Shown here in pieces: positions 29,790 to 61,098 of a stretch of DNA of 64,000 nucleotides (position 1 is the first letter of the stretch; every line of letters starts with the position of its first letter). The stretch spans positions 10,837-74,836 of the forward strand of contig JAGQUR010000012.1 in assembly GCA_020438395.1 (NCBI GenBank). The letters run 5' to 3'. Origin of the DNA: Solirubrobacterales bacterium. Lineage in GTDB: Bacteria > Actinomycetota > Thermoleophilia > Solirubrobacterales > 70-9. The position numbers were made by a program, and so were the translations under genes. The notes below the pieces were generated by a model, which saw only the letters and a program-made list of their open reading frames with translations, was not told where the DNA came from and made no database searches.

Positions 29790-29804
29790 CCTACAGAGTG
29801 TAGG
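29790..29804. promoter_or_regulatory. Palindrome CCTACA-GAG-TGTAGG (BlaI/CopY-type operator candidate, site 1)
   Basis: A perfect 6-3-6 dyad lies in the copZ-copA intergenic region, 46 nt upstream of the ATPase start. Confidence 0.6.
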
Positions 29805-29848
29805 AGTCCGGAGGCGTCTCGTAAACAGTCCTCGCCATGGCCGGCGCC

Positions 29849-30115
29849 TCAGCCCTTGCCCTGGGCATCGGCGCAATGCCCACAGCACGATGTGGCGGCT
29901 GACTTCGCGTCGTAGCCGGCGTTGCGGACGGCCGCGATCACCGCGGCCTCATCGATGACGCTGCCCGTCACACGCATGCGTCCGGTCTCAGCGCTCACTT
30001 TAACTTCTTTCACGCCGGCCGTCGACAGGACTCCTTCCCGGATCGCAGCTTCGCAGTGGGAACAGCTCATGCCGTCGACTTCGTACTCGATGGACGTTGC
30101 CTCTGTGGAACTCAT
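29849..30115 (-). CDS. copZ: Heavy-metal-associated (HMA) copper chaperone with Cys-rich tail
   Basis: YEVDGMSCSHCEAAI (GMxCxxC) and the C-terminal SCCGHCADAQGKG are present. Confidence 0.85.
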   Translation of the reverse strand: MSSTEATSIEYEVDGMSCSHCEAAIREGVLSTAGVKEVKVSAETGRMRVTGSVIDEAAVIAAVRNAGYDAKSAATSCCGHCADAQGKG

Positions 30116-30171
30116 CTCTGTTTCCCTTCGCTCGGAGTCATGCGTCTAGATGCGGTCAACACGACGTTACC

Positions 30172-30188
30172 ATACCCCCCAGGGGTAT
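30172..30188. promoter_or_regulatory. GC-rich dyad ATACCCC-CCA-GGGGTAT (CsoR-type operator-like)
   Basis: A perfect 7-3-7 dyad lies 57 nt upstream of the copZ start. It resembles the TACCC..GGGTA pseudo-palindromes reported for CsoR operators. Confidence 0.5.
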
Positions 30189-30356
30189 ACAAAATTGGAA
30201 GGTGCGACCCCCTGACGCGGTAAACGGGGCCAACCTGCGCTGGAACCACCGACGGGAAACGCCAGCAAGCTGAGGAGGGAGCCCAGACCATCCGACTGAC
30301 TGCTCCTTCATGGGCCGCTGCGCGCAACCAACGGCGCAGAGAAGCCCGCACCTTGA

Positions 30357-31601
30357 CTACAGGTAGCCCATGGGATCTACGGCTACGCCGCTGGTGCGCA
30401 CCTCGAAATGCAAATGCGCACCGAAGCTGTGCCCGGTATTGCCGACATAGCCGATCACGTCGCCCTGGCGAACGCTGGCGCCCGATGAAGTAGCGAAACC
30501 CGACTGGTGCGCATAGCAGGTGGAGAGGCCGCCACCGTGGTCCACGCAGGTGTAGTTGCCGTACCCTCCGCTTTCCGCCTCGGATTGCATCAGGATCACG
30601 GTCCCCGACGCTGCCGCTCGTATCGGTGTGCCTTCGGGAGCGGCGATGTCTATCCCTTCGTGCATGCTGCCCCAGCGCGATCCAAAGGGCGAGGTGAAGG
30701 TTCCATCAACCGGCCAGATGAAGCCTGAGGTGCTCGGCGTTGGCATCGGACCCGCCGGTAGTTCGGTGCCGGTCGTTGCCCCGGCGACCTCCTGCTCGAT
30801 CTTCGCCCGGAGGTCGGAGGCAACTTCTTCGTACTTGTGGATACCGCTGCGCACGCTCTCCAGGGTCGTTTGACGTTCAGCGCGTGCTGAAACGAGGGCA
30901 CCTTCCCTTGTCTCTAGCGTCGTACGGGTCGCCTCGAGACGGCTCGCTTCCGCGGCGATCCGATCACGAGCGGACTCAATCGTTGCCTTCGCATCACGCC
31001 GAATAGTCACCAGTTCTTTCGATTCGTCGCGCAACGTACGCACCCGCTCGGCCAGCGCCTCATCACTCCTCTGAATCTCCGCTACATACTGGGACACAGC
31101 GACCATGTCACCATAGTCCTTCGCCGCCAAGATGATCGACGCTATGTCGGGCTCTCCCGACATGTAGATCGAAACCAGGCGGTCGCGGAGGTTGTTCAAC
31201 GCGCGCCGCAGCCGTCCTCGGAGAACTTTCAACTCGCCAACAGCGACTTTGAGCTGAGAAACGGCCTGATCGAGCTCTGCTTGCTTGGCCGCCAACTCTG
31301 CTTCGGCGGCGTCCTCCTGAGACCTCAAGTCAGCCACTTGGGATTCGAGTGCGGAGATCTCATTGCCCATCGACTCGATATCTCTGGTCAAGACCCCCTC
31401 CCGTTGGCGGGTGGTATCGATCTTCTCTTCGACCGCGTCCAGCTTCTCCTCGGCATTCTTTCCAAATGCGCTCCCAGCGAACGTACCGCTAATGACTAGA
31501 ACAGCAAGGGCTAGGGCGAGAAAACGCCCCGCCGGGGTGAGGGGCGGATTTTCGATGAGGGAGAGTTTCACGATAGGACGCTGCCGCAGAAGCACGCGCA
31601 A
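30357..31601 (-). CDS. M23 family metallopeptidase with N-terminal coiled coil
   Basis: A signal/TM segment, a long heptad-rich region and then HEGIDIAAPEGTPI...GNTGHSFGAHLHFEV are present. An alternative GTG start lies at 31571. Confidence 0.85.
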   Translation of the reverse strand: MRVLLRQRPIVKLSLIENPPLTPAGRFLALALAVLVISGTFAGSAFGKNAEEKLDAVEEKIDTTRQREGVLTRDIESMGNEISALESQVADLRSQEDAAEAELAAKQAELDQAVSQLKVAVGELKVLRGRLRRALNNLRDRLVSIYMSGEPDIASIILAAKDYGDMVAVSQYVAEIQRSDEALAERVRTLRDESKELVTIRRDAKATIESARDRIAAEASRLEATRTTLETREGALVSARAERQTTLESVRSGIHKYEEVASDLRAKIEQEVAGATTGTELPAGPMPTPSTSGFIWPVDGTFTSPFGSRWGSMHEGIDIAAPEGTPIRAAASGTVILMQSEAESGGYGNYTCVDHGGGLSTCYAHQSGFATSSGASVRQGDVIGYVGNTGHSFGAHLHFEVRTSGVAVDPMGYL

Positions 31602-31603
31602 CT

Positions 31604-31618
31604 CCTACAGACAGTAGT
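31604..31618. promoter_or_regulatory. CCTAC-AGACA-GTAGT dyad (operator candidate, site 2)
   Basis: A CTAC-N5-GTAG core lies in the divergent region between the M23 peptidase gene and the blaI-like gene. Confidence 0.5.
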
Positions 31619-31714
31619 AAAGAACGTGACGCCGCAAGCAATGCAATGCTCACGTGAAATCTCAGTTGCGAACCGGCCAGAATGCCAGCGCCAGACGCGA
31701 TGTAGACTTGTGCC

Positions 31715-32107
31715 GTGGTCCGACTACCTGTCGTTCAGCTCCAAGGCGAGCTGCAGCTCGAAGTGATGAAGACCCTCTGGCGGCTCGACGCTCAAGTCGG
31801 CGTCGAGGATGTAAGAAGCAAGCTTCCTGCCGACAAGCAGGGGGCCTACACCACGATCCAGACGATCCTCAATCGCCTTGCCGAGCGCGGCTTGGTAAAG
31901 CGGAAGCGCCACGGCAAGAATGTCTTCTATCGAGCCGCTGTGTCCGAGGCCGACTACTACTCGCGTTCTCTCAAAGAAGCGCTCGCCCCCGCGTCCGACC
32001 ACGCACGCCGAGCCGCACTCGCGCAGCTGGTAGGGGATCTGAACCCGGGCGAGCTGACCGAAATCGAGGAACTCGCGCGCGACGTTTCCGCACGGAGAGA
32101 TCGATGA
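31715..32107 (+). CDS. BlaI/MecI/CopY-family winged-helix repressor
   Basis: LQLEVMKTLWRLDAQVGVEDVRSKL....GAYTTIQTILNRLAERGLVKRKRHGKNVFYRA matches the Penicillinase_R-type fold. There is no C-terminal Cys cluster. The start is GTG. Confidence 0.75.
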   Translation: MVRLPVVQLQGELQLEVMKTLWRLDAQVGVEDVRSKLPADKQGAYTTIQTILNRLAERGLVKRKRHGKNVFYRAAVSEADYYSRSLKEALAPASDHARRAALAQLVGDLNPGELTEIEELARDVSARRDR

Positions 32108-33075
32108 CGGGCATGACCCTGGCCCTTGCTGTCGTCTTGGTCGCCGGGTCGGCTTTCTCTTACGCCCTCCCACGCACCAGCCTAGCCCCGATAACGGGGG
32201 CGGCCCTTTGGTTAGCGATCCTCTATCTGCGGGCCGTGCTCGTCTCGATCGCCGCCCTGACCATCGCCTTCTACGTGCCGACGACACCGCTCTTCGAAGT
32301 GCTGACTCGCTGGTGCGCACACGCGGCCCTCCCGTTCATCACGTCCCACCTTGGTCTCTCCGGACATGGGATCGGGGACGCAGCGATCATGCTCCCCGCG
32401 TTCGTCATCGCGATTTCCGCCGGTTGCGTAGTGCTCGCTGTCGCACGGACCACTCGGGCCATGCGTCGATGGCTCAAGCGCAGTTCGCTCGGAACCGGAC
32501 CGGACGAAAGCGTGATTGTCGGCGGCGAGGAAGTCGTTGTTGCCGCTGCAGGTATCCGCAGCCCCAAGATCATCGTCTCGACCGGGGCTCTAGCTCGGCT
32601 CGACGAAGACGAGTTGGCGGCCAGCATCGCGCACGAACGCGGCCACATCACCCGACGGCATCCGTTCATCGTCCTGGCGGCCAACCTCGCCTATGCCGTG
32701 GCCCGTCCCATGCCGGGAACCAAGGACGCGTTCCAGCGCCTCAGGTTCTGTCTGGAGCGCGACGCCGATGAATACGCCGTGGATCGCACCCGCGACCCGA
32801 TCGCTCTCGCCAGTGCGATCTGCAAGGCCGCGGTCGATTCGCCAACGCCCAATGTGGCTCTGGCGACGCTGGCCGGCTCGGGTGCCCCGGCCCGGCTCAG
32901 GCTGCTGCTCGATCGCCCTGCCACCCGCCCGAAGGCATGGGTGGAAATCGTCGGTCGTAGCCTCGTAGTAGTGACGGTCGCGAGCGTCCTGTTGGCTGTG
33001 GGAGCGACACCCACCCTCGCCAAGAACGGTCACGCGGCCCTACACGCGAGCCCTCCCGCCCACTCCTGCGACTAG
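32104..33075 (+). CDS. BlaR1-like M56 membrane metalloprotease lacking a sensor domain
   Basis: The start overlaps the blaI-like stop as ATGA. Multiple TM helices and the HExxH motif IAHERGHITRRHP are present. At 323 aa there is no PBP-type extracellular domain. Confidence 0.7.
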   Translation: MTGMTLALAVVLVAGSAFSYALPRTSLAPITGAALWLAILYLRAVLVSIAALTIAFYVPTTPLFEVLTRWCAHAALPFITSHLGLSGHGIGDAAIMLPAFVIAISAGCVVLAVARTTRAMRRWLKRSSLGTGPDESVIVGGEEVVVAAAGIRSPKIIVSTGALARLDEDELAASIAHERGHITRRHPFIVLAANLAYAVARPMPGTKDAFQRLRFCLERDADEYAVDRTRDPIALASAICKAAVDSPTPNVALATLAGSGAPARLRLLLDRPATRPKAWVEIVGRSLVVVTVASVLLAVGATPTLAKNGHAALHASPPAHSCD

Positions 33076-33133
33076 CGCTGTCACCAACGACTTCGCGCTC
33101 GTGATCGCGGGTTCCGTCATCCCGCGATCTAGT

Positions 33134-33150
33134 TACTACAGGTCGTAGTA
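33134..33150. promoter_or_regulatory. TACTAC-AGGTC-GTAGTA dyad (operator candidate, site 3)
   Basis: Perfect 6-bp arms lie 14 nt upstream of the ATG at 33164. Confidence 0.55.
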
Positions 33151-33163
33151 TAGGCTTGCGCCA

Positions 33164-33700
33164 ATGAGGACCGCTGAGGCAGCCAATATCGAACCCGACA
33201 TTGCCGCCAAGCCGTTTCGGGCCTTGCTCCTGAACCCGCGCTTCCTCGGGTGCGCAATTCTTGGATCGTTGGCCGCTTTGGTGCTGGTCGGCTTGCCAAC
33301 CGACATTCTGCCCAATCCCTGGTTCACTCGAATGACGCCAATCAGAGCTACCGACTATCTGTTCTGGGCCACGAGCGGCATCTTGACCGGCGCCCTGCTC
33401 GCAACCTATCTCCTCCCTGGCAGGCAGCGGAGCAGCGTCGCGACCACAAGCGCGGGGACCGGACTTCTGACCGTTTTTGCGGTCGGTTGCCCTATCTGCA
33501 ACAAGTTGGTGGTTGCCCTCCTGGGCGTTTCGGGCGCACTCACCTTCTTCGCCCCGATCCAGCCACTGCTTGGAGCCGTCGCATTGGGCACCTCATTCGT
33601 CGCACTCAGAATTCGCCTGCGTGGGGCCGGCAACGCCTGTGCGATCGCGAGCCGAGAGCCCACCCCACGCATTCCACCGAGGAAAAAGGACGCTACGTAG
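33164..33700 (+). CDS. Polytopic membrane protein with intramembrane CPxC motif
   Basis: Four hydrophobic segments are present, and FAVGCPICNKLVVALLG places a Cys pair in a TM helix. Confidence 0.6.
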   Translation: MRTAEAANIEPDIAAKPFRALLLNPRFLGCAILGSLAALVLVGLPTDILPNPWFTRMTPIRATDYLFWATSGILTGALLATYLLPGRQRSSVATTSAGTGLLTVFAVGCPICNKLVVALLGVSGALTFFAPIQPLLGAVALGTSFVALRIRLRGAGNACAIASREPTPRIPPRKKDAT

Positions 33701-33722
33701 CCCGCGTCAGCGGGACGACCCG

Positions 33723-34379
33723 ATGGCCGGCGACAGATACATCCCGGCACTCCGCTTCCGTGCCCTAACAAGCAGCTACGACCGCATAGTTCGGGTGACC
33801 ACCCGGGAGCGTCAATTCAAGGAGCGGCTCATCGAACGAGCCAGCCTGAGACACGGCGAGCGCGTGCTGGATCTAGGTTGCGGGACGGGGACGCTGGCAC
33901 TCGCCGCCAAACAAGCCCAACCGGATACCACCGTGGTCGGCGTGGACGCGGACCCCGCCATCCTCGACCTGGCTCGAAGCAAAGCTGAGCACAACAGCGC
34001 CGACGTCGATTTCGTAGAAGGCATCTCCACTGAACTACCCTTCGATGACGGCTCCTTCGACCTTGTGCTCTCAACACTCTTTTTTCACCACCTGGCACCC
34101 GATGCCAAGCGCGCGACAGCCGCCGAGCTGGCGCGAATCCTCCTTCCGTCCGGACGCCTACACGTAGCAGACTGGGGACCACCCCAGGATCACCTGATGG
34201 CCTTCCTTTTTCTAGGCATTCGGCTGCTCGACGGTTTCGAGCCGACTCGCGGCAGCGTCGACGGCGATCTGCCGAAGATCTTCTCCAATGCCGGATTTAC
34301 CGAGTACGCGCGTCGCGAACGACTACGCACCCCCTTCGGCAGCCTCGCTTTCTACTCGGGCTTTCGACAGCTCGGCTGA
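33723..34379 (+). CDS. Class I SAM-dependent methyltransferase (paralog of 60391-61047)
   Basis: VLDLGCGTGTLA (motif I), VVGVDADP, FDLVLSTLFFHHL and GRLHVADWG are present. ATG at 33723 lies within a longer ORF-track frame. Confidence 0.8.
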   Translation: MAGDRYIPALRFRALTSSYDRIVRVTTRERQFKERLIERASLRHGERVLDLGCGTGTLALAAKQAQPDTTVVGVDADPAILDLARSKAEHNSADVDFVEGISTELPFDDGSFDLVLSTLFFHHLAPDAKRATAAELARILLPSGRLHVADWGPPQDHLMAFLFLGIRLLDGFEPTRGSVDGDLPKIFSNAGFTEYARRERLRTPFGSLAFYSGFRQLG

Positions 34380-34426
34380 CCTGCGCTGAAGCACACCCGA
34401 CGACCCCGGACCTCAACACGGCTATA

Positions 34427-34439
34427 CTACAGTCTGTAG
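34427..34439. promoter_or_regulatory. CTACA-GTC-TGTAG dyad (operator candidate, site 4)
   Basis: A perfect 5-3-5 dyad lies in the intergenic region after the methyltransferase gene. Confidence 0.5.
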
Positions 34440-34510
34440 GAGAAGATTTCTGGGTGCTTGAGAATCCCGGCCAGGACCGCTCGACACCCACGGCTGAGGT
34501 GTCACCTCGA

Positions 34511-34529
34511 CTCCTACAGATTGTAGGAG
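34511..34529. promoter_or_regulatory. CTCCTACA-GAT-TGTAGGAG dyad (operator candidate, site 5)
   Basis: A perfect 8-3-8 dyad lies 30 nt upstream of the ATG at 34559. Confidence 0.6.
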
Positions 34530-34558
34530 TTGTGTTCTATACGGAGAAGATTGGAGCG

Positions 34559-34714
34559 ATGGAAAACCTCGTACGCAAGCGTCGCTCCCCCTCTCTCTCC
34601 CGGACCGGGGGCAAGTGGGTCAGCCACTCCCCAGCCACTGTCTACTATCCCGGATTGGCAATTGGCATCGTCCTGGCGGTCATCATCCTCCACCGACTCG
34701 GAGTACTTTTGTGA
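34559..34714 (+). CDS. Small membrane protein (51 aa)
   Basis: GGAG lies 3-6 nt upstream of the ATG. The product is MENLVRKRRSPSLSRTGGKWVSHSPATVYYPGLAIGIVLAVIILHRLGVLL. Its stop overlaps the next start as GTGA. Confidence 0.35.
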   Translation: MENLVRKRRSPSLSRTGGKWVSHSPATVYYPGLAIGIVLAVIILHRLGVLL

Positions 34715-35010
34715 AGTTTCGGCGCCGGCAACGAAACGAAGCGACACAGACAGCCCCTGAGCCTCTGGCTCGTAGATCCAAAGGGGGTTTAAGGGTCCAA
34801 CTCGAGTTGCTCGATGCCGGCGCTCAGACCGAACAGATCATCGCAACGATCAGAGAGAGCTATGAGGTCGTACGTCATGGAAGCACGGTCGAGGTTCTGG
34901 TTGAAGACGTGCGCTTCCCAGATGAAGCCGTGGTGCGGTTGGCTTTGATGCTTGACGATGCCCACCCCGATTGGCAACGACTCGTGTCCTGGCCAAGAAC
35001 GAAGCGATGA
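34711..35010 (+). CDS. Hypothetical protein (99 aa)
   Basis: The GTG start overlaps the preceding stop. No family was recognised. Confidence 0.35.
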   Translation: MKFRRRQRNEATQTAPEPLARRSKGGLRVQLELLDAGAQTEQIIATIRESYEVVRHGSTVEVLVEDVRFPDEAVVRLALMLDDAHPDWQRLVSWPRTKR

Positions 35011-35100: not shown

Positions 35101-35910
35101 ATGGAAGCGTCGCTACCTAGCCCGTCATCAAGCGGATTTTCCGTTGGCCCACTTGAAGTTCATGCCTACGGGCTGGCGTACGTCGCGGCTGTCATCGTCG
35201 CTACATTCATCACCGTGCGCCGCTGGGAAGCATCTGGCGGCTCCCGCGAAACGGTCTACGACGTCGTCATGTGGGGGTTCCCAGCAGGTCTGATCGGCGG
35301 CCGCCTCTATTTCATCGTCACCAGTTGGAGCGAAGTACCTCAGCATTGGTGGGGTCCGTTCGCTGTCTGGCAAGGCGGTCTCGGAATATGGGGTGGCATC
35401 GCCGCCGGTACCGCCGTTGGCATCTGGCGCCTTCGGCGTGCTGGCGTCCCAGTGGCGGCTTTTATGGATGCCGCTGCTCCAGCGCTACTGGTGGCCCAGT
35501 CGATCGGCAGGATGGGCAACTACTTCAATCAGGAACTGTTCGGCGGGCCAACGAGCTTGCCTTGGGGCATCGAGATCTCGCCCGAACATCGCCCAGAAGG
35601 CTACGCCACGGACGTCACGTTCCACCCGACGTTCCTGTACGAGATCATCTGGAATCTGTGTCTCGCTGCTTTCTTGGTCTGGCTCGGAGGCCACCGCCGC
35701 ATCCGGCCGCCAGGCCTTTTCGCCCTCTACGTCACTGGCTACTCGGCCTTCCGTGTCTTCGAGGAGCTACTGCGCATCGATCCGGCAAACCACATCTTCG
35801 GCCTGAGACTCAACTTCTTCGTTGCTGGCGTGCTCACGATCGTGGGTGCGACCTGGATCGCGCGCACCCAGGGATGGAGGCTGAACAGACGCATCCGCGA
35901 CGCGCCCTAG
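35101..35910 (+). CDS. lgt: Prolipoprotein diacylglyceryl transferase (island-borne copy)
   Basis: VHAYGLAYVAAVIV, GGRLYF, GGLGIWGG, SIGRMGNYFNQELFG and HPTFLYE are Lgt signature blocks. Confidence 0.85.
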   Translation: MEASLPSPSSSGFSVGPLEVHAYGLAYVAAVIVATFITVRRWEASGGSRETVYDVVMWGFPAGLIGGRLYFIVTSWSEVPQHWWGPFAVWQGGLGIWGGIAAGTAVGIWRLRRAGVPVAAFMDAAAPALLVAQSIGRMGNYFNQELFGGPTSLPWGIEISPEHRPEGYATDVTFHPTFLYEIIWNLCLAAFLVWLGGHRRIRPPGLFALYVTGYSAFRVFEELLRIDPANHIFGLRLNFFVAGVLTIVGATWIARTQGWRLNRRIRDAP

Positions 35911-36027: not shown

Positions 36028-36678
36028 CTAGTGGTCCATGTGGTCCATCGAGTTCATCTCGTCGGAATCCATTGAATCACCCATCATGGGTCCGCTCGGT
36101 GCGCCTCCCGACGGCGAAGGCGCTCCGTACCAATCCATGCGCCACCGATTCATCTGGGCGATCTCCTTCGCCTGCGCGTCGATGATTGCCTGCGCCAGAT
36201 CCTTGGTTTCTTGGTCCTGGCCCTCTTCTAGCTCCGCGTATGCCATCCGGATGGCTCCCTGATGGTGAGGGATCATCTGGTCGATGAACTCGCGGTCAAA
36301 CGGGTTGGCATTCTCGAGTTCGGACATATCCATATCCATGCCCATCATCGAATCGCTCATATCCATGCTGCCGTTGTCGGTGTTCGAGCTAGATTCGGTG
36401 GCCATACGATCGTGAATCGAATTCAGAGTCTCGATCTCCGCGCTCTGAGTTTCCACGATGTTGTTTGCCATCTGGATGATCTCGGGATGTTCGCCGTTCT
36501 CCTTTGCCAGTTCGGCCATCTTGATTGCCGCCTCGTGGTGCGGAACCATCTGCGCGGCGAACGCGACGTCGACCTCCTCTCCGGAAGTATCGGAATCGCC
36601 TGATCCGCTGATCAGTACGTAGGCACCAACGGCCACCAGGATCACGACGATCCCTGCTGCCAGAGTCTTCTTTGTCAT
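36028..36678 (-). CDS. DUF305-family Met/His-rich metal-binding protein
   Basis: Two FAAQMVPHHEAAIKMA / FIDQMIPHHQGAIRMA repeats are present. There is a Met/Asp-rich linker (MDMSDSMMGMDMDMS) and tail (MMGDSMDSDEMNSMDHMDH), plus an N-terminal TM anchor. Confidence 0.85.
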   Translation of the reverse strand: MTKKTLAAGIVVILVAVGAYVLISGSGDSDTSGEEVDVAFAAQMVPHHEAAIKMAELAKENGEHPEIIQMANNIVETQSAEIETLNSIHDRMATESSSNTDNGSMDMSDSMMGMDMDMSELENANPFDREFIDQMIPHHQGAIRMAYAELEEGQDQETKDLAQAIIDAQAKEIAQMNRWRMDWYGAPSPSGGAPSGPMMGDSMDSDEMNSMDHMDH

Positions 36679-36760: not shown

Positions 36761-37105
36761 TCAATTCCTGAAGACCTGCTGACACGACGGTCCTTCTCTT
36801 ATTCGACTTCCGGGCTGAAACCGTGTAGCCCGCATCGACACAACGGGAAAGCTTGGAACCAGGGACGCCGTCCAAGGTGCCCATCGGCGGCTCCTGCGAC
36901 GCAGGAGCCCGACCATGACGCCACAGGCCTGCATGATCGCCAAGCACACCGAAACCACCGCATGCGCGTTCATGGAATCGTCGTCCATCGCGTGTGCCGA
37001 GGGACCGCTGTGCAAAAGAACGATTGCCATCCCGACCAAGACAATGGCGAGACCCCCTGCTAGCGAGCCTTTGAACGCTTTCAGCAGACGCCGGCAGCTA
37101 ATCAT
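36761..37105 (-). CDS. Small membrane protein (possibly DUF6153-like)
   Basis: A TM segment (GGLAIVLVGMAIVLLH) is followed by a His/Cys-containing segment (HAMDDDSMNAHAVVSVCLAIMQAC). It lies between the M23 and DUF305 genes. The family assignment is from memory only. Confidence 0.35.
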   Translation of the reverse strand: MISCRRLLKAFKGSLAGGLAIVLVGMAIVLLHSGPSAHAMDDDSMNAHAVVSVCLAIMQACGVMVGLLRRRSRRWAPWTASLVPSFPVVSMRATRFQPGSRIREGPSCQQVFRN

Positions 37106-37195
37106 GTCGCCCACGACGATCCCGTGCGAAGACACCCGCTCCGACCTTCAAGCGAGGAAATGGCCTGCGGCGACCACAGATTTGGATGCCTCGGT

Positions 37196-37759
37196 TCAGC
37201 GCGCCCGTCTCCACTTGCGAAGGTACGGAACTGGATTGCTCACATCTCCACCTCGATACCAGCCAGGTCTAGTCCACATCTCGAAATGAAGGTGGCAGGC
37301 GCTCGATCGTCCGGTGGAACCGACCAGACCGATTCGCTGACCAGCCCGCACGGTCTGCCCAGCCCTCAACGATGTCTTGCGAAGCATGTGCATGTAGACG
37401 TAGTCGAACTTGGTCGTAGTGCCACGCACCACGACGTAATTGCCGGCCCCGGACGCCTGGTAGCTCACCCGCGTCACACGTCCGGACTGCGCCGCGACTA
37501 TGGGTCGAGCGCATCGGGCCATGAGGTCCTGTCCTTGATGGCCTCTGCCAGCGCCGATGCCGTCACCCCAAGTGACTGCTCCCCTCACTGGAAAGGTGCC
37601 ATTTGCCGGCGCCGATCCCGCCGGCTCTGGTGACTCTACGGCAAGTCCTCCAGATGAGGACGAGGAGGCTTCTGCTACTCCGATGGTGATGCTGAAGGCT
37701 CCCAAGATCATGGTCGTTGACGTAAGTAGGAACCGCCAGAACGGGGTACTGAATTTCAT
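37196..37759 (-). CDS. M23 family metallopeptidase (small, secreted)
   Basis: A signal peptide, then GHQGQDLMA..., GLVGSTGRSSACHLHFEM are present. Confidence 0.8.
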   Translation of the reverse strand: MKFSTPFWRFLLTSTTMILGAFSITIGVAEASSSSSGGLAVESPEPAGSAPANGTFPVRGAVTWGDGIGAGRGHQGQDLMARCARPIVAAQSGRVTRVSYQASGAGNYVVVRGTTTKFDYVYMHMLRKTSLRAGQTVRAGQRIGLVGSTGRSSACHLHFEMWTRPGWYRGGDVSNPVPYLRKWRRAR

Positions 37760-37924
37760 TTCGTCTCTCTTTCATCTGCCTTCGGGGTTAGCTGACGGGC
37801 TCGCGCTGAAAGAGTTCGCGCTACGCATTCCTGCGATTCGCCCCAGAGGCCTGGGCCTCAGTGGGTTCCCCGATCCGGTTGGACCAGATTCGGCTTGTTT
37901 GCAGATAACAATCTACCGACATTT

Positions 37925-37941
37925 ACGACAGTCTGTAGGAG
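37925..37941. promoter_or_regulatory. ACGACA-GTC-TGTAGGA imperfect dyad (operator candidate, site 6)
   Basis: There is one mismatch in the left arm. The 15 nt ACAGTCTGTAGGAGA are identical to 34429-34443. The site lies ~170 nt upstream of the M23/DUF305 operon and 20 nt from the integrase stop. Confidence 0.4.
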
Positions 37942-37959
37942 ACCCCTTCTTTGGTCGTC

Positions 37960-52519: not shown

Positions 52520-52542
52520 TGATTTAGCGATTCTGAAAAGTT

Positions 52543-52571
52543 TTGACGCAAACGGTGTTCTCATTCGACAA
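52543..52571 (+). promoter_or_regulatory. Promoter-like motif copy A: TTGACGcaaacg-N11-CGACAA upstream of the sigma-factor gene
   Basis: TTGACGCAAACGGTGTTCTCATTCGACAA, with a 17-nt spacer. Confidence 0.6.
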
Positions 52572-52621
52572 AGAAGTGAGATGGTGCGTTCTGAACACCC
52601 CGATTCCCACCCGAACAGCGT

Positions 52622-53848
52622 TTGCCGAACCTCCCGTTCGGGAACCCAGAAACCATGTCGGTCGTGGCGGTCCATATGAGATGGGCGTTGGACACCGATC
52701 AGCTCAAGAGCATTGAGATCGGATTGCGGGGAAAGCTGCGCTCCACGCAGATCCCGGAGGCGTTCATCGAACGCAATCTCGAAGACCTCCTCCAACAAGC
52801 CGTCGCCGAGTACGCCAACGTCCGCGAGCGCGGCATCAAAGTCGTAAACCCGGGCGGTTGGATCGTCCACTCCGCTCACCTACGAGCGATCGATCAACTC
52901 CGCCACGAACAACACGAGGTCGAAGGGACCACCGAAGACGTAGCGGCCAACATGGCCGACGAGACGACACCGCTCCCTGATGAAGAAGCGCTCGGACACA
53001 TAGAGGCTGAGCAGCTTCACCGGGCGATCTCCCGACTATCGACCTCCCAAAGGCAGGCTCTCAGCCTCTATTACTTCGAGGATAAGTCAACCCGCGACGG
53101 TGCCGACGCGCTCGGTTGGAGCGAACCAACCTTCAGAAGAAGACGCGACGCAGCGATAGAGAGCCTCCGGGAACGCCTTGGCGTAACCGTGCCCGAGTTC
53201 GACGTCGGGCTCGCCGCATGGCTCAGTCTCACCGTCTCCGAGAGTCGCTTCGCCTGGGCCACCAGCAACATCGGCGGCACGATCGAGACGATCCGGTCCG
53301 GCGCCGTTGCGGTTGCGGATCGAACGCGAGAGTTCGCGACAAGGCTTCTCTCGTCCGGAGGAGGAGAGACCGCGATCGGGATCGGCAGCCCAGCCAGCAA
53401 GGCGGCCGCCGGGGTTTGCGCGACCGCCCTCGCGGCATGCACGGCAACCGGAGTGATCGGACCCGGAGTGGCCGGCGTAGATCTCATCGACCACAACACC
53501 AAGCCGAAACCATCCGTCGAAAAACGAGTCGTACCCACCGGGCAAGGACCGAACCGACCGCCCGCCACCTCGACCGCATCCACGCCGAGCCAAGAATCCA
53601 GCCGCGCCAGCACTTCGCAAACGACCAAGCGGCAGAAAGCCAACGGGTCGAGCAAGAGCCAGGCAAGCTCTGAGCAGAAGAGGACTCTGCAGGCCCGCCA
53701 TAACGCCAGCTCACAGTTCGGTGTCGAATCAAGCGCATCCACAACCCCGGCCGGAGGCGCGCCCACCACAACGAGTCCACCCCCGAGCGCTTCGGCGCCT
53801 TCACCTAGCCCCGATCAAGCCGCACAAGAACAGTTCGGGCTTCCCTGA
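52622..53848 (+). CDS. Sigma-70 family (ECF-like) sigma factor with ~200-aa C-terminal extension
   Basis: The region-2-like segment is NPGGWIVHSAHLRAIDQLRHE. The region-4 HTH is LSTSQRQALSLYYFEDKSTRDGADALGWSEPTFRRRRDAAIESLRERL. A hydrophobic stretch and a Ser/Thr/Pro-rich tail follow. The start is ambiguous (TTG 52622 or ATG 52655). Confidence 0.7.
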   Translation: MPNLPFGNPETMSVVAVHMRWALDTDQLKSIEIGLRGKLRSTQIPEAFIERNLEDLLQQAVAEYANVRERGIKVVNPGGWIVHSAHLRAIDQLRHEQHEVEGTTEDVAANMADETTPLPDEEALGHIEAEQLHRAISRLSTSQRQALSLYYFEDKSTRDGADALGWSEPTFRRRRDAAIESLRERLGVTVPEFDVGLAAWLSLTVSESRFAWATSNIGGTIETIRSGAVAVADRTREFATRLLSSGGGETAIGIGSPASKAAAGVCATALAACTATGVIGPGVAGVDLIDHNTKPKPSVEKRVVPTGQGPNRPPATSTASTPSQESSRASTSQTTKRQKANGSSKSQASSEQKRTLQARHNASSQFGVESSASTTPAGGAPTTTSPPPSASAPSPSPDQAAQEQFGLP

Positions 53849-53860
53849 TTCCTCAAATTT

Positions 53861-53889
53861 GTGACGCAAACGGCCGCCTCATCCGACAA
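53861..53889 (+). promoter_or_regulatory. Promoter-like motif copy B: GTGACGcaaacg-N11-CGACAA upstream of the secreted-protein pair
   Basis: GTGACGCAAACGGCCGCCTCATCCGACAA, with a 17-nt spacer. Confidence 0.6.
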
Positions 53890-53963
53890 AGAGATAGAGG
53901 CGCCGCCGTACGCGCCGACGTGCCTTGGCTTGTTTCAGCGCGAATTGGGTAGGTGAATACAAA

Positions 53964-55538
53964 ATGAAAAAGGGTCTTGGAAGCAAACTCGCCAGGATGG
54001 CGGGCACCGGGGCCGTAGCTCTGGTGACGTTGATCCTGATTGGAACACCAGCGAAAGCCGGCGACTATGTCGTGGCGCAGTGCGCGCCGGGCTTGAACGC
54101 CAGCACTGAAGCTCGTTTCTCATCTTCGAGCAACCACTTCAAGGGGATACAAGAATGTGGGCGAAACTCACCGGGAGTCCAGGTCCGTCATCAACTCGCA
54201 GCGGGTGAGACCGGCACGGTCCATCGGCGATTTGGCGCATGGGTCTGGACGGCGCCGCCCGGCACCGTGATAAGCGGCGGTTCAGCACGTAGCCGGCTTG
54301 AGAATGCAAACGGTGTATCCGGCTATCTCGTTGTTTCCCCGGATACCGGCAATAGCGCGGTTACGGAAAACCAAAACGACGGAAACCAGCACCTCTCTGC
54401 CATTCCCGCCGGCAGGTGGCGGTACTTCGTCGCCAGGCTTGAATGCACCTCACCAACTCAAGGGGGCCGTTGCGTAGGGGCCGCGGCCAATGCTCATACC
54501 TATGTCAAGCAGGTTCGCCTTCGGCTGACCGACCTGGCCGCGCCCGTACTTGGCGTCGGAGGGTCCCTGCTCGAAAGTGGTACCAGCCGCGGATGGCAAA
54601 CCATCAGTTTGCTCGCATCCGATCAAGGCGCCGGCATCAAGTCCACAAGGGTCACGGTCAACGGCGTCCAGGCAGCCGGTGAAGACCTCGGCATCTCCTG
54701 TCACCCGCTACCCGGCGGTTTGACGTCCAGCTTGTCGCCCTGCCCGAAAGCGATCGGCAAGGTCTATTCGCTCGATACCGCTGCGCGGCCGTTCAGGCAT
54801 GGCAACAACAAGGTCGAGGTCTGCGTCAGCGACTATGCACAGATAGGGACACCCAACTTCGATTGCGAATCTCGGCAGGTCTTGGTGGACAGTCTTTGCC
54901 CGGCCTCATCGGCCGGGGGAGGCAAGAAGCTCAGGGCTCGGTTCACCAGATCCGGCAAGCGATTCTCGCGCCAAAAGATCGGTACCCCGACGATCATCCG
55001 GGGACGCATCGGCGACGGCCACGGCAACCCAATCGTCGGCGCTCAGGTCTGCATTCAAGCCCACACGGATCTTCGCGGCAAGAAGTTCAAACTGCTCGCG
55101 ACCACAGCAACGAACTCTGACGGCCACTTCACCTACAAGCTCAAACGCGGAGCCTCTAAGAAAATCCGCGTCGTCTACCGGGATGGCACTTTCCAGATCT
55201 CCCGTAGCCTCCGTCTCAAGGTCAAGGGAACTTCGACCCTTCATGTGAGCAAGCATCGAACTCGACCGTTGAAGCGGGTCGGATTCTTCGGGAAGATCCC
55301 CGGCCCCCACGCTGCCGGCCGTGTGGTGGTCGTCTACGGCACCGTGCCCGGGGCCAAGAAGAGGTTTCTAGTTCGCCGAGCGAAGACAAACTCAGTCGGC
55401 CGTTGGCGGGCGGGCTACTCATTTACGCCGGTTCCGGCCAGGACGAGGTTCGTATTCTGGGCGGTCGTCCCGAACCAGAACGGGTATCCGTACACCCAAG
55501 GGCGCTCGGCCGCCCGATACATACGAGTAAGGCCATAG
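53964..55538 (+). CDS. Secreted hypothetical protein (524 aa) with basic C-terminal beta-rich domains
   Basis: ATG 53964 gives MKKGLGSKLARMAGTGAVALVTLILIGTPAKA (signal peptide). The CarboxypepD_reg-like segment IIRGRIGDGHGNPIVGAQVCIQ is present, and the tail is Arg/Lys-rich. Confidence 0.6.
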   Translation: MKKGLGSKLARMAGTGAVALVTLILIGTPAKAGDYVVAQCAPGLNASTEARFSSSSNHFKGIQECGRNSPGVQVRHQLAAGETGTVHRRFGAWVWTAPPGTVISGGSARSRLENANGVSGYLVVSPDTGNSAVTENQNDGNQHLSAIPAGRWRYFVARLECTSPTQGGRCVGAAANAHTYVKQVRLRLTDLAAPVLGVGGSLLESGTSRGWQTISLLASDQGAGIKSTRVTVNGVQAAGEDLGISCHPLPGGLTSSLSPCPKAIGKVYSLDTAARPFRHGNNKVEVCVSDYAQIGTPNFDCESRQVLVDSLCPASSAGGGKKLRARFTRSGKRFSRQKIGTPTIIRGRIGDGHGNPIVGAQVCIQAHTDLRGKKFKLLATTATNSDGHFTYKLKRGASKKIRVVYRDGTFQISRSLRLKVKGTSTLHVSKHRTRPLKRVGFFGKIPGPHAAGRVVVVYGTVPGAKKRFLVRRAKTNSVGRWRAGYSFTPVPARTRFVFWAVVPNQNGYPYTQGRSAARYIRVRP

Positions 55539-56006: not shown

Positions 56007-56011
56007 GCACC

Positions 56012-56031: not shown

Positions 56032-56154
56032 AGACGTCCAATTGGTTCGGTCGCATCAAGCTCGGTTTCGCCGAGACGCGTCATGCCGCTCCGCTTCCGT
56101 GCGATCAGCATAGTATATGATTATTCAGATATCGGATTTAGAGGATGTGACCCA

Positions 56155-57621: not shown

Positions 57622-57638
57622 CCCCGAGGAGACGAGAG

Positions 57639-58001
57639 ATCGCAGCAGCCAAGGTAAGTCCGTTCCGGCTCCCTGAGAAGCCGATCGAGGCCGACATCGT
57701 CGCGAAGTACTTCCGCGGCCTCGGCGACCCCACCCGCCTTCGCATCCTCGAAGCGCTGGCGGAAGACGAGCGCTCGGTGGGCGAGCTGGTCGAGCTGCTC
57801 GGCGTTCCGCAGCCGAAGGTCTCCAGCCACCTCGCCTGCCTGCGCTGGTGCGGCTTCGTCGAGAGCCGCCGCGAGTTCCGCAGCGTCCATTACCGGATCG
57901 CCGACGAGCGGGTTGAGACGATGATCGCGCTCGCCGGCACTCTACTGGAGGACAACGCCGAACACGTGGCCGCCTGCCGCCGAATCGACGCAGGGACCTG
58001 A
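57639..58001 (+). CDS. ArsR/SmtB-family metalloregulator, CmtR-like (5' end unresolved)
   Basis: FRGLGDPTRLRILEALAEDERSVGELVELLGVPQPKVSSHLACLRWCGFVESRREFRSVHYRI is present. There is no ATG/GTG/TTG between the in-frame stop at 57513 and GTG 57777. ATC 57639 has GAGGAG 7 nt upstream. Confidence 0.7.
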   Translation: MAAAKVSPFRLPEKPIEADIVAKYFRGLGDPTRLRILEALAEDERSVGELVELLGVPQPKVSSHLACLRWCGFVESRREFRSVHYRIADERVETMIALAGTLLEDNAEHVAACRRIDAGT

Positions 58002-58003
58002 CG

Positions 58004-58691: not shown

Positions 58692-59018
58692 CGGCTGCCG
58701 CTACCCGCGAGGCTTGTCACGAAGGCAAACTTGCCCTGACGATTGCTGATGCCGCCTGATCGTGAACCCGGTGGGTCTCCTCGATCTCGATCGACCGGCA
58801 GGTTCAAACGTCCCCGATCGGCCTGAACTCCAGACGAAGCCCCGTTACCCCAAAGATTCTCAGGCGTCCGTATATCTCGAAGGCCACGGGAGGTATCTCC
58901 AAGTAGTGTCGACGGTCCGGCATATGCGATCACCGCAACCCGATCAGGGACGACGGCTGGACGCATCAGGACGCGGCAAGCGTGGCAACGAGCACCGCTT
59001 TTATAAGACAATCCCCGG

Positions 59019-59327
59019 ATGCTCATCGGCGCAACTGCACGTGACCTTTTCCTGTCGCGAGACGGAGGCGAGACGTGGAGAAGCTCACCAGGCTCCCCCG
59101 GTCTACTCGCGTGGCCGCGACTTGATCGTTTGTACTTGGCTGACCCGAAGGGATCGATCAAGCTAAGCACTAACCAGGGACGAAGCTGGAAACCTGTCGG
59201 AGAGTTGCCCGGTTCACCCGCGGCGCTGGGATACGGTTCCGGCCAACTGTTCGCTTCCACCCACGACGGGACGATCCTTGAATCACACGATGAAGGATCG
59301 AACTGGAGCGTACGATTCTCTCAATGA
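59019..59327 (+). pseudogene. C-terminal fragment of a BNR/Asp-box beta-propeller protein
   Basis: Three Asp-box-like motifs are present: SRDGGETW, STNQGRSW and SHDEGSNW. Only 102 aa remain, with an in-frame TAA at 59004 just upstream. Confidence 0.45.
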
Positions 59328-59631
59328 TTAGGACGCCGGTCTTGTAATGCGGTTCGCTTTCCGTCCTCGGCATCGTTCGCGAGCATGCTCCGGAGGGTCC
59401 CCGGCAATTGATGACACGTCGGGGCCGGATCAGGTAGGGACGAGCGAGGAGCGCGGCGGCGGCCTGACCGCCATCGCATATGTGATCTCTCGCCCGGTCT
59501 GCTCCCGAGCCCGGCCTGCGCGAGCGACGGCCAACACGAGGATCAGGAATTCAAGCGGCATGAGCACCACGAAACCGGTACAGCCAGCTCCGCCACGACT
59601 TCGGGTGGATGCCCGCTTACCCGGCCGCTCC

Positions 59632-60390
59632 TTAGACCGAGTTCCAGAAATCGAGACCGATGTCGCTCATCCACTTCTGGACCTCGATGTTAATTCGGAA
59701 AAGCTCACCGGTCCAAATCAGGACACCCATCGCGATCAGTATCACGCCACCGAAGGCGACGATCACGTTGTAATGACGCTTCACGACCGTGAACGCCGTG
59801 GTCATTCGCTTGAAGGCGAGCACTGTCAGAAGGAAGGGAATCGCTAGTCCCGCCGAGTACACCGCGAGCAGCAGCGCACCATTCGCGGCCGACCCCGACA
59901 GGGAAGCCGCCGACAGGATTGCCCCCAGCGTGGGTCCGATACATGGAGTCCAGGCAAAAGCGAAAGCGGCGCCGGCAACGACAGGTCCTCCCTTTCCCGC
60001 CCGGGACATGAGCGCGTCGACGTGCCATTCGCGATTGAGCTTGGTTACGAAGAACGAACCGACGAAAAGGACTCCCATCAGGATGATCAGGGCCGCGGCA
60101 ACCTTGTCGAGCACTTGCCGGTTGTCGATGAGGATCGATCCGATCTTCGTCGCGCTGAGACCGAGCAGTATAAAGATGAATGAGAAGCTCGCGACGAAGA
60201 AAAGGCTTGGCACCAGCACCCGCCTCCACCCCGCGTCCTCGATGTCATCGATCGAGACTCCGGTGACAGCGGAAAGGTATCCGGGCACCAGCGGCAAGAC
60301 GCAGGGCGAGAGAAACGACACCATGCCCGCCAGCAGCGCGGCGAGGAGACCCACCCCCTCGGCCGGATTCGAAGTCGCGAGTAGGTCCAC
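59632..60390 (-). CDS. ccdA: Cytochrome c biogenesis / thiol-disulfide transporter CcdA (DsbD family)
   Basis: LLAGMVSFLSPCVLPLVPGYL and AFAWTPCIGPTLGAIL (two conserved Cys) are present. Confidence 0.85.
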   Translation of the reverse strand: MDLLATSNPAEGVGLLAALLAGMVSFLSPCVLPLVPGYLSAVTGVSIDDIEDAGWRRVLVPSLFFVASFSFIFILLGLSATKIGSILIDNRQVLDKVAAALIILMGVLFVGSFFVTKLNREWHVDALMSRAGKGGPVVAGAAFAFAWTPCIGPTLGAILSAASLSGSAANGALLLAVYSAGLAIPFLLTVLAFKRMTTAFTVVKRHYNVIVAFGGVILIAMGVLIWTGELFRINIEVQKWMSDIGLDFWNSV

Positions 60391-61047
60391 CTACCGTGGC
60401 TTCGCGGCCGAGATGAACTCCATCGAGCCCCACACGGTTCTCAGCGTGCGCCAGACGGAAACGTCATCGAACCCGGCCGCGCCGACGAGCTTCGGAATTC
60501 CCCCTCGGGCGTGATCCCTCGTGTTGACAACCCCGTCGAGAACGCGCAGGAGCTGGAAGCCCGCGAACGTGATCGCATCCGGCTTGCCCCAATCGGCGAC
60601 GTGGAGGCACCCACCGGGCCGCAGGACCCTCTCCGCCTCGACGAGCGCCGAAGCCTTGGCTTCGGGAATCAGGTGATGGAGGAGGAGAGACATCGAAACG
60701 ACATCCACGCTGTCATCCGCCAGGGGAAGATCCGCCGCGAGACCTTCGTCCCAACGAACCCGGTCCGATCCCGGCTTGGACTTGGCGATAGCCATCGATT
60801 TGGGATCGCCATCGACGCCGATGACCGACGCGTCAAGGCGAATAGTCGCCAGCTCTATCGCGAAGGTTCCGGTTCCGGAACCGACATCGGCCGCGACCCC
60901 ACCCTCCGGTAGATCGAGGCAGATTCGTTCGACCAGCGCCGTTCTCCAAGAACTTTCACGCATGCTCAGGGCCATGACCGGGTCGTACAGGCGGGTGAAC
61001 GTTCCACGTCCGGCCGCAGGAACGTAACGATCGTCGTCAGGGGTCAT
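60391..61047 (-). CDS. Class I SAM-dependent methyltransferase (paralog of 33723-34379)
   Basis: VAADVGSGTGTFA, VIGVDGDP, VDVVSMSLLLHHL and GCLHVADWG are present. Its stop directly abuts the ccdA start. Confidence 0.8.
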   Translation of the reverse strand: MTPDDDRYVPAAGRGTFTRLYDPVMALSMRESSWRTALVERICLDLPEGGVAADVGSGTGTFAIELATIRLDASVIGVDGDPKSMAIAKSKPGSDRVRWDEGLAADLPLADDSVDVVSMSLLLHHLIPEAKASALVEAERVLRPGGCLHVADWGKPDAITFAGFQLLRVLDGVVNTRDHARGGIPKLVGAAGFDDVSVWRTLRTVWGSMEFISAAKPR

Positions 61048-61077
61048 TGCTCATCGCAATGTGGGTTGGATCGACCA

Positions 61078-61098
61078 TCTACTACAGATAGTAGTAGA
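61078..61098. promoter_or_regulatory. TCTACTAC-AGATA-GTAGTAGA dyad (operator candidate, site 7)
   Basis: Perfect 8-bp arms lie 31 nt upstream of the methyltransferase start at 61047. Confidence 0.6.

Follow-up and report, generated by a model that had tools for sequence, protein, structure and literature searches.

Among BlaI/BlaR-type regulatory pairs that lack a sensor domain, PetR/PetP (Slr0240/Slr0241) of Synechocystis sp. PCC 6803 is alone in having a defined signal. The system is activated by copper, and degradation of PetR requires copper as well as PetP (bioRxiv 10.1101/2020.07.31.226407; PMC7896320). The PetR operator is GAC-N5-GTC, and residues in a loop of PetP have been proposed as copper ligands (bioRxiv 10.1101/2020.07.31.226407). 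PetRP acts on the four genes of the plastocyanin/cytochrome c6 switch and, unlike other copper regulators, controls no copper-homeostasis genes (PMC10141476, a 2023 review). Compared by its published description (Garcia-Canas et al. 2021), it is the closest known system to the one analyzed here: a predicted BlaI-family repressor, a membrane metalloprotease encoded by the overlapping gene, and seven palindromic dyads, all within a 64-kb stretch of DNA (the window) from an uncultured Solirubrobacterales bacterium (contig JAGQUR010000012.1, positions 10,837 to 74,836).

Three other systems are relevant. BlaR1 is oriented N-out/C-out, and its loop between transmembrane helices 2 and 3 (the TM2-TM3 loop, EL1) sits in the active site of the sensor domain and relays the signal to TM3 (PMC9834060). 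Pairs without the transpeptidase domain make up the majority of annotated BlaR proteins, and targets repressed by one such sensor-domain-less pair, CenIR of C. difficile (2026), include a peptidoglycan hydrolase and further envelope genes (PMC13492132). CopY, with its Cys site, is listed from Firmicutes only (PMC11672702, a 2024 review).

The window pair resembles PetR/PetP in that the regulator is a BlaI/CopY-family protein without the CopY Cys site, its stop codon overlaps the start codon of the next gene, which encodes a four-TM M48/M56 protease lacking a C-terminal penicillin-binding domain, the associated inverted repeat has the form xAC-N5-GTx, and sensing is proposed to involve the TM2-TM3 loop. 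The operators share this geometry and differ in bases, GAC-N5-GTC there and TAC-N5-GTA here, with a CGAC/GTCG half-site variant at riboswitch-linked promoters of the present system. Proteolysis of the regulator has been shown for PetRP, whereas here it is predicted. The two systems also differ in their targets (here copper export, thiol-redox, lipoprotein, and peptidoglycan enzymes), in the invariant C-terminal Cys that the protease has here, and in home phylum, the window pair belonging to the Actinomycetota (Thermoleophilia).

As in BlaI/BlaR1 and MecI/MecR1 of Staphylococcus aureus, a PF03965 winged-helix repressor is accompanied by a membrane HExxH...E protease of N-out/C-out topology (predicted for the window protein), and a divergent promoter is predicted to be autoregulated through a palindromic TAC/GTA operator. 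Unlike BlaR1 and MecR1, the protease has no penicillin-binding sensor domain and there is no beta-lactamase or PBP2a target; the operator also differs in spacing and flanks from the TACA/TGTA boxes of BlaI and MecI. With CopY of Enterococcus, Lactococcus, and Streptococcus, the system shares the repressor family and the P1B copper ATPase and CopZ-type chaperone as targets. However, CopY is its own Cu(I) sensor, by way of a C-terminal CxCx4CxC, and works without a partner protease, whereas the repressor here is devoid of Cys, and the cop box is TACAnnTGTA (TAC-N4-GTA) rather than TAC-N5-GTA. Like CenI/CenR and the mycobacterial BlaI/BlaR (Rv1846c/Rv1845c), the window encodes a noncanonical BlaIR pair without a transpeptidase domain; unlike here, CenR has a longer C-terminal disordered region, its regulon and operator are different, and no copper link has been reported for it. 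The mycobacterial BlaI operator may also be of a TAC...GTA type.

RESULTS

Seven intergenic dyads in the window

A preliminary description of this DNA, read from the letters without database searches, had proposed that a sensor-less BlaI/CopY-BlaR1 pair controls seven intergenic CTAC-N5-GTAG dyads of one family. Exact matches to this core start at 29791, 31605, 33136, 34427, 34514, and 61082, that is, six against 0.07 expected, and in 100 dinucleotide-preserving shuffles none reached six or indeed exceeded one. The seventh site, at 37926 (CGACAGTCTGTAG), has a single core mismatch. A 19-bp weight matrix that had been trained solely on the sites of 80 other loci (see below), and was therefore not circular, gave its top seven window scores (24.7, 22.5, 22.0, 19.1, 18.5, 17.0, and 16.7 bits) to exactly the seven sites that had been picked by reading, whereas the eighth-ranked position scored 9.7 bits and the 99.99th percentile was 13.9. 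We concluded from this clear gap that the window contains exactly seven sites and that the mismatched site at 37926 is genuine. All seven are intergenic, and none lies in the first 25 kb of the window, which has a higher third-position GC content and resembles host backbone.

Other details of the preliminary description needed revision. The CTAC-N5-GTAG core does account for six exact matches, but the true unit is not this 13-bp element; it is a palindrome of 17 to 19 bp, (c)TCCTACR-N3-YGTAGGA(g), which is perfect at 34511 (CTCCTACAGATTGTAGGAG) and at 61079 (CTACTACAGATAGTAGTAG). A TACA-N3-TGTA arrangement, attributed to four sites, occurs in only three, the fourth reading GACA...TGTA. The left half-site CTACAG holds as a trait of the window, but across the family the position after CTAC is R (A 49%, G 43%). 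All seven window sites carry ACAG on the + strand regardless of the direction of the regulated gene; since the position is R/Y-symmetric family-wide, we rejected the orientation (CTACAG/CGACAG) as a meaningful family feature, and its uniformity in the window may reflect local copying of sites.

Each dyad precedes a gene or putative operon. At 29788-29806, TACCTACAGAGTGTAGGAG (exact core, 22.0 bits) lies 47 bp ahead of the start of copA, which encodes a CPD-type P1B copper ATPase, with the dyad centre 53 nt before the copA TTG. The gap between blaI and a divergent M23 peptidase gene (M23a) contains CTCCTACAGACAGTAGTAA at 31602-31620 (exact core, 19.1 bits); it lies 104 nt ahead of blaI and is the presumed autoregulatory operator of that gene. 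Between the protease stop (33075) and the start of a gene for a CPxC membrane protein (33164) is TTACTACAGGTCGTAGTAT at 33133-33151 (exact core, 18.5 bits). After the stop codon of a methyltransferase gene (MT1) come two dyads that precede a small-ORF/lgt operon, ATACTACAGTCTGTAGGAG at 34424-34442 (exact core, 22.5 bits) and, 87 bp further on, the perfect palindrome at 34511-34529, which has an exact core, the best score in the window (24.7 bits), and its centre 39 nt ahead of an ATG at 34559. The dyad with one core mismatch, at 37923-37941 (TTACGACAGTCTGTAGGAG on the + strand, 17.0 bits), lies between an integrase stop (37960) and a second M23 peptidase gene (M23b) and is, judging by its position, the putative promoter-proximal operator of an M23b-TM124-DUF305 operon.

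The last dyad, at 61079-61097 (perfect palindrome, exact core, 16.7 bits), is located 29 kb from the regulator, between the start of a second methyltransferase gene (MT2, 61047) and the stop of a second ATPase gene (ATPase2, 61180), and precedes the MT2/ccdA operon with its centre 41 nt before the MT2 ATG. This far site, too, is a true family member, and methyltransferase genes are recurrent targets elsewhere. An exact 13-mer, GTCTCGTAAACAG, is found upstream, in the reading direction of the gene, of the copA dyad and again of the MT2 dyad (29816-29828 and 61126-61138), within a similar stretch of ~22 nt (GTCCGGAG..GTCTCGTAAACAG) whose distance to the dyad is 13 nt in one case and 32 nt in the other; it could be a common -35/UP-like element or the trace of a duplication.

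The dyad recurs with the regulator across related loci

A scan that took one genome per species gave 80 loci with repressor homologues at 46 to 78% identity, mostly from Solirubrobacterales/Thermoleophilia, with a few from Streptomycetaceae, Yinghuangia, Microbacterium, and others. The 1.23 Mb of these loci contain 155 exact core sites, whereas first-order Markov simulations gave 0 to 4 (~1 expected). The symmetrised family consensus is TCCTACR-N3-YGTAGGA, beyond which composition is at background. None of the 155 sites falls within the mapped homologous coding regions, and density declines away from blaI, from 6.1 per 10 kb in the kilobase upstream of it (48 sites) and 3.7 per 10 kb in the bin just past the protease gene (28 sites) to 0.4 per 10 kb or less beyond 7 kb. 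In 42 of 79 loci, the 400 bp upstream of blaI include a site that scores at least 13 bits.

To map targets, window proteins were placed on the loci, the ORFs downstream of sites were clustered, and Pfam was run on representatives. Genes preceded by a dyad included blaI (30 cases), M23 peptidases (25), methyltransferases (21, from 17 loci, which ranks this family third), the CPxC protein (14), C39-like peptidases (14), and copA (10); further recurrent targets were a multicopper oxidase, a YHS-domain cyclase, a CHAP-domain protein, a deacetylase-like protein, lgt, and DUF305. Because the same target families recur across related loci, the mixture of copper export, thiol-redox, lipoprotein maturation, and peptidoglycan hydrolase genes is, as far as comparison of the loci goes, a conserved property of the family and no accident of the window. 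Several metagenome-assembled genomes (MAGs; loci L033/L034, L040/L060, and L053/L070, and L051 at 6523-7700 and 14076-15045) carry at least two paralogous blaI-protease pairs with the same dyad type, which raises the question of repressor cross-talk.

Alternatively, the palindromes might be RNA hairpins (terminators or attenuators), copies of a small mobile repeat, or the sites of some other factor. Every dyad can fold as a hairpin, and one (34508-34532) was flagged as terminator-like; moreover, the sites at 34425-34443 and 37924-37942 are 95% identical over 19 nt, including the nonconserved spacer AGTCT. We also searched metagenome contigs in reverse, with the perfect palindrome CTCCTAC-N5-GTAGGAG. 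Among the matches listed, 3 of 120 stretches contained a blaI or protease homologue and 5 of 120 any family of the cluster; with 14 bases specified and a collection of this size, most of these matches are due to chance, which makes the reverse search uninformative and not a negative result. One unrelated metagenome contig (L205, GC 0.58), on which no blaI homologue was found, has perfect palindromes at 2762, 5003, and 5347, preceding cysteine-synthase-like, threonine-synthase-like, and ThiS/JAMM-type genes, and these probably serve a different regulator.

Against such explanations, base identity in the dyads is conserved beyond what pairing would demand, while the flanks outside the 19 bp are at background. 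The sites are found ahead of genes, irrespective of strand, and between divergent genes rather than at gene ends, and most have no T-tract. Their density follows the distance from blaI, blaI is the sole regulator gene common to the loci mapped with the window proteins, and their geometry relative to riboswitch 5' ends is promoter-like (see below). We consider a nonoperator origin highly improbable and the dyads very probably the operators of this BlaI-family repressor.

A Cys-free repressor and a BlaR1-like protease with conserved Cys/His residues on its predicted outer face

The blaI-like gene (31715-32107, + strand) encodes a protein of 130 amino acids. It scored 84.7 bits against Pfam Penicillinase_R (PF03965; cut-off, 22.6), with residues 11-121 aligned to positions 2-113 of the 115-position profile, and 49.3 bits against the nearest named NCBIfam model, CopY_TcrY (TIGR02698), which is under the cut-off of 121.95. 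The repressor thus belongs to the BlaI/MecI/CopY family yet is no CopY; it has no C-terminal CxCx4CxC (or CxC) metal site, being devoid of any Cys. It is 100% identical to a protein of a Solirubrobacterales MAG that NCBI names BlaI/MecI/CopY family, and the identical gene cluster is present on 18 contigs from several metagenomes.

The blaI stop codon overlaps, in the ATGA manner, the ATG of the gene for a 323-amino-acid membrane zinc metalloprotease (32104-33075, + strand) with the motif HERGH, and the pair is kept in 77 of the 80 loci. The protease family is compact (318 to 325 amino acids). Its only Pfam match is to PF01435 (M48; 33 bits, E <0.01), and NCBIfam likewise gave weak M48/HtpX matches. 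Homologues are nevertheless named M56 family metallopeptidase at NCBI, with a precomputed PF05569 match in 1 of 120. An AlphaFold 2 (AF2) model based on 41 homologues had a predicted local distance difference test score (pLDDT) of 81, and its best Foldseek matches were the cryo-electron microscopy structures of S. aureus BlaR1 (8ext, 8exq, 8exs, and 8exr; probability, 1.00), at modest TM-scores. The protease is a candidate BlaR1-like protein without the penicillin-binding domain: there is no PF00905 match, and the chain stops ~15 residues past TM4.

In the 41 aligned homologues, the zinc-site residues H177, E178, and H181 (HExxH) and E218 are invariant. The AF2 helices (residues 2-19, 29-60, 90-127, and 278-315) and the positive-inside charge distribution read from the sequence suggest four transmembrane helices in an N-out/C-out topology, with the HExxH...E domain on the cytoplasmic side, after TM3 and before TM4, as in BlaR1. 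This topology would place both the TM2-TM3 loop and the C-terminal tail on the outer face. The same alignment shows that P59, F64, T68, W70, C71, P77, H82, G84, H88, and G91 of the loop (residues 57-92) are invariant, that H73 is conserved in at least 90%, and that the loop lacks Met. A Cys lies 1 to 6 residues from the C terminus in 51 of 51 locus-derived sequences, and C322 is invariant in the 41-sequence alignment.

These results bear out the preliminary description in assigning the repressor to the BlaI/MecI/CopY family, in denying it the CopY metal site, and in noting the ATGA coupling and the HERGH motif. Its label "M56-type" agrees with the names of the NCBI homologues but not with the Pfam search, which gives M48. 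"Sensor-less" is apt insofar as there is no penicillin-binding domain; in view of the invariant Cys/His outer loop and the C-terminal Cys, it goes too far.

The similarity scores leave room for a second arrangement, in which the repressor would be released by its own ligand or metal in the manner of CopY and the protease would have another job, such as HtpX-like membrane quality control: the best NCBIfam similarity of the repressor is, after all, to CopY/TcrY (49 bits), and the protease scores on M48/HtpX models only. But this CopY score is far under the cut-off and the repressor has no Cys, let alone a CxCx4CxC; the genes overlap and stay together in all but three loci; the best fold matches of the protease are to BlaR1; and PetR, likewise without a Cys site, is controlled by proteolysis. 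We regard CopY-like release as very unlikely and, by analogy with these systems, derepression through proteolysis as probable.

The dyads probably overlap promoters, some in front of c-di-AMP riboswitches

The gap between the dyad at 37926 and the M23b start is filled by a cyclic di-AMP (c-di-AMP; ydaO) riboswitch at 37762-37905 on the - strand (Rfam RF00379, 82.4 bits; E = 1.2e-17; gathering score, 38). The dyad centre is 27 nt upstream of the riboswitch 5' end, with TAGATT in between. Among the related loci, 16 were searched for RF00379 and contained 18 more copies (for example, at 7981-8130 in L001, at 4465-4620 and 15446-15596 in L002, and at 5112-5257 in L036), and we used riboswitch 5' ends as an anchor for the transcription start. 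For 16 of the 19 riboswitches, there is a dyad of at least 13 bits whose centre lies either 27 to 42 nt upstream of the aptamer start or 0 to 3 nt from it. By eye, most members of both classes have a TAnnnT hexamer where a -10 element would be expected. In the upstream class it separates dyad and aptamer, and in the 0- to 3-nt class it overlaps the dyad or immediately precedes it. This fixed geometry indicates that the dyads overlap the -35/spacer or the -10/+1 region of promoters. Similarly, towards copA there is a TTTACG-N17-TACACT in which TACACT lies inside the dyad at 29788-29806 and may, from its sequence and position, be the -10-like hexamer of the copA promoter.

A CGAC/GTCG half-site occurs in all seven riboswitch dyads that are 27 to 34 nt upstream and in four of the seven at 0 to 3 nt. 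Since this half-site is usual at riboswitch dyads, the mismatched window site at 37926 is a conserved variant and not a decayed copy.

Genes next to the sites

The copA gene (27363-29744, - strand) encodes a P1B-type copper ATPase with CPD in TM6 (NCBIfam TIGR01511, 586 bits; cut-off, 397). CPD stands in place of the canonical CPC, and the Cu-type motifs YN-x4-P and M-xx-SS are retained; the N terminus is His/Met-rich and has a Cys-less domain resembling a heavy-metal-associated (HMA) domain. CPD is conserved in 20 orthologues beside blaI pairs, whereas nearby CPC-type paralogues are just 37 to 47% identical. Next to it, copZ (29849-30115, - strand; a gene call in the identical contigs) encodes a CopZ-like HMA metallochaperone (NCBIfam CopZ models, 45 to 61 bits) and is probably cotranscribed with a 59-amino-acid ORF (30112-30291) and M23a (30357-31601, - strand). 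M23a, which has a coiled coil and an M23 domain (PF01551 in the identical contigs), is divergent from blaI, and its homologues have a dyad in front in 16 of 24 cases.

On the other side of the regulatory pair, the CPxC gene (33164-33700, + strand) encodes a four-helix membrane protein with an invariant G-C-P-x-C-N-K within a transmembrane helix and an equally invariant C159. No other gene is as tightly linked to the blaI-protease pair, and homologues of CPxC are dyad preceded in 14 loci. There is no Pfam or NCBIfam match to the protein, none of its 1438 homologues is named, and a fold search with a poor AF2 model (pLDDT, 69; predicted TM-score, 0.44) found no meaningful match. MT1 (33711-34379, + strand) is a class I S-adenosylmethionine methyltransferase (Methyltransf_25, 85.6 bits) and is 39% identical to MT2. 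It is followed by two small ORFs (34454-35010, + strand; gene calls in the identical contigs), one for a membrane protein of 86 or 51 amino acids and one for a hypothetical protein of 99 to 131 amino acids, neither with a Pfam or NCBIfam match, and by lgt (35101-35910, + strand), encoding prolipoprotein diacylglyceryl transferase (PF01790, 197 bits). Homologues of the hypothetical protein have a dyad in front in 5 of 6 loci.

The putative operon behind the riboswitch (- strand) consists of M23b (37196-37759; PF01551, 79.7 bits), a 124-amino-acid membrane ORF (TM124, 36761-37135), and a DUF305 gene of the copper-binding type (36028-36678; PF03713, 154.8 bits), an order shared with L001. At the far site, MT2 (60391-61047) and a gene for a CcdA/DsbD-type thiol-disulfide transporter (59632-60390) were called as ORFs on the - strand; CcdA scored 39 to 40 bits against NCBIfam DsbD-type models, under their cut-offs, and has homologues in 6 related loci.

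Island context

Between the main cluster and the far dyad lie genes for a tyrosine recombinase, a DNA methylase, a Replic_Relax protein, a TrwB-like coupling protein, an AAA_10 VirB4-like ATPase, and a TcpE-like protein, which confirms a transfer module of the integrative and conjugative element type. There is no tRNA gene in the window, and there are no att-like direct repeats around the integrase or the transfer module. In L001, the closest relative, the entire regulon forms one contiguous, codirectional block with no transfer module, suggesting rearrangement or insertion in the window.

On the transfer-module side, a 46-nt direct repeat with 78% identity (52529-52574 and 53847-53892) occurs just upstream of ORF 52622-53848, which has a sigma-70 region 4 domain, and of ORF 53925-55538, and it looks like a separate shared promoter or operator. 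The right-hand cargo (57777-58001, 61180-63162, and 63120-63590) also encodes two ArsR-family regulators and one Cd/Zn-type (P1B-2) ATPase. No dyads accompany this metal module, which appears to be separately controlled beside the dyad-tagged MT2-ccdA operon.

DISCUSSION

The regulon interpretation is supported as far as computation reaches for an organism represented by a MAG. On balance, we favor the following reading of the window as likely: the repressor encoded at 31715-32107 would act on the seven dyads and be released by the protease, with a combined copper and envelope output. Bound as a dimer, the repressor would cover core elements of the promoters of six or seven transcription units (blaI-protease, M23a-copZ, copA, CPxC-methyltransferase, small ORFs-lgt, M23b-TM124-DUF305, and MT2-ccdA), and the cotranslated membrane metalloprotease (32104-33075) would cleave it, as in BlaR1/BlaI and PetP/PetR. 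The sensor would be formed by C71, H82, and H88 of the TM2-TM3 loop and by C322 of the tail, and binding of extracytoplasmic Cu(I) or oxidation under copper or thiol stress would turn the protease on. The CPD-type P1B ATPase, CopZ, and DUF305 (elsewhere a multicopper oxidase) would then be induced together with CcdA, the CPxC protein, Lgt, and the peptidoglycan hydrolases, the M23b operon being gated additionally by the c-di-AMP riboswitch. The least certain step is the signal, which could well be copper or copper-induced thiol stress acting through the Cys/His face.

Several results weigh against this reading. The Pfam M56 model PF05569 gave no match to the protease, a profile search of PDB sequences with it returned only HtpX/M48 fragments and no BlaR1, and the Foldseek matches to BlaR1 are modest (TM-score, 0.36 to 0.46; E = 4e-3 to 3e-2). 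AF2 confidence is low precisely at the candidate sensor (pLDDT 53 to 65 in the loop and <50 in the tail), and the loop of PetP has 14 residues and two conserved Met, whereas the loop here has ~35 residues and Cys/His, with no counterpart of those Met residues. The Asn-Phe site at which S. aureus BlaI is cleaved is not conserved in the repressor, which lacks a Phe there. With regard to the dyads, the palindrome also occurs in unrelated metagenome contexts and its sequence alone is not diagnostic, and a sigma-70 scan gave no promoter at them, the consensus used being of the E. coli type and uninformative for Actinomycetota. Finally, about half of the related loci have no copper gene within 10 kb, and with many envelope enzymes among the targets, envelope or disulfide stress could be the signal in place of copper.

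This last point amounts to a rival account, in which the same circuit would respond to envelope damage (peptidoglycan or lipoprotein defects or beta-lactams) or to extracytoplasmic disulfide stress, and the copper genes would be just one output. Peptidoglycan hydrolases, counting the M23 and C39-like peptidases together with CHAP, are the top targets after blaI, and lgt and ccdA are targets as well; in Yinghuangia soli, two dyads lie between genes read by eye as encoding a DsbA-like CxxC protein and an NlpC/P60-like hydrolase. BlaI of Mycobacterium tuberculosis is reportedly released under beta-lactam treatment. Furthermore, CenIR, a sensor-domain-less relative, controls the hydrolase Cwp6 (PMC13492132). 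On the other hand, a Cu-type ATPase, CopZ, or DUF305 gene was present in the fetched flanks of 37 of the 80 loci, including nearly all close relatives, and those closest to the window (at least 60% identity) nearly all have a dyad-preceded CPD-type ATPase beside the pair. Genes for a multicopper oxidase, a YHS-domain protein, CopZ, and DUF305 are found repeatedly in the loci, and of the homologous systems without a sensor domain, the only one whose signal has been defined responds to copper. Invariant Cys and His residues on the outer face are typical of Cu(I) chemistry, though they fit thiol oxidation equally well. We think a noncopper input unlikely, although it is the strongest of the alternatives that we considered.

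If copper or thiol chemistry is the input, a broader proposal can be made, which we offer as speculation. The protease could define a distinct class of extracytoplasmic copper/thiol sensors, in which a BlaR1-type protease has had its antibiotic-binding domain replaced by a minimal tail ending in Cys that works with the Cys/His loop. Metal binding or oxidation would lead to destruction of a Cys-free BlaI and to coinduction of the targets across Thermoleophilia and some other Actinomycetota, layered on c-di-AMP riboswitches, and operator-tagged mobile cargo such as MT2-ccdA could plug into a resident regulator.

The preliminary description had held such wiring to be undescribed. This is true to the extent that our search of the literature found no report of BlaI/BlaR-type control of copper resistance in Actinomycetota, but PetR/PetP and CenIR are precedents: sensor-less BlaI/BlaR pairs and a copper-activated BlaR-like protease are already known. 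The new elements are the consensus sequence of the operator, a regulon of this size and composition, the Cys/His signature, the lineage in which the system occurs, its combination with c-di-AMP riboswitches, and the presence of a site on cargo beyond the transfer module.

A clean, conserved operator, a multioperon regulon, and mutable outer-face residues (C71, H82, H88, and C322) together make the sensing question testable in cultured carriers, among them Svornostia abyssi J379 (NZ_CP088295.1), which has 10 sites in 20 kb, Solirubrobacter soli, S. phytolaccae, S. deserti, and Yinghuangia soli. The M23b operon, in which a peptidoglycan hydrolase gene stands behind both a predicted protein operator and a c-di-AMP riboswitch, neatly illustrates combined control. 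If the signal is copper, this would be the first BlaI/BlaR-type system to govern copper resistance itself, a role for which reviews have so far listed CopY, CsoR, CueR, and two-component systems, and it would tie copper stress to lipoprotein maturation and cell wall hydrolysis in an understudied actinobacterial class.

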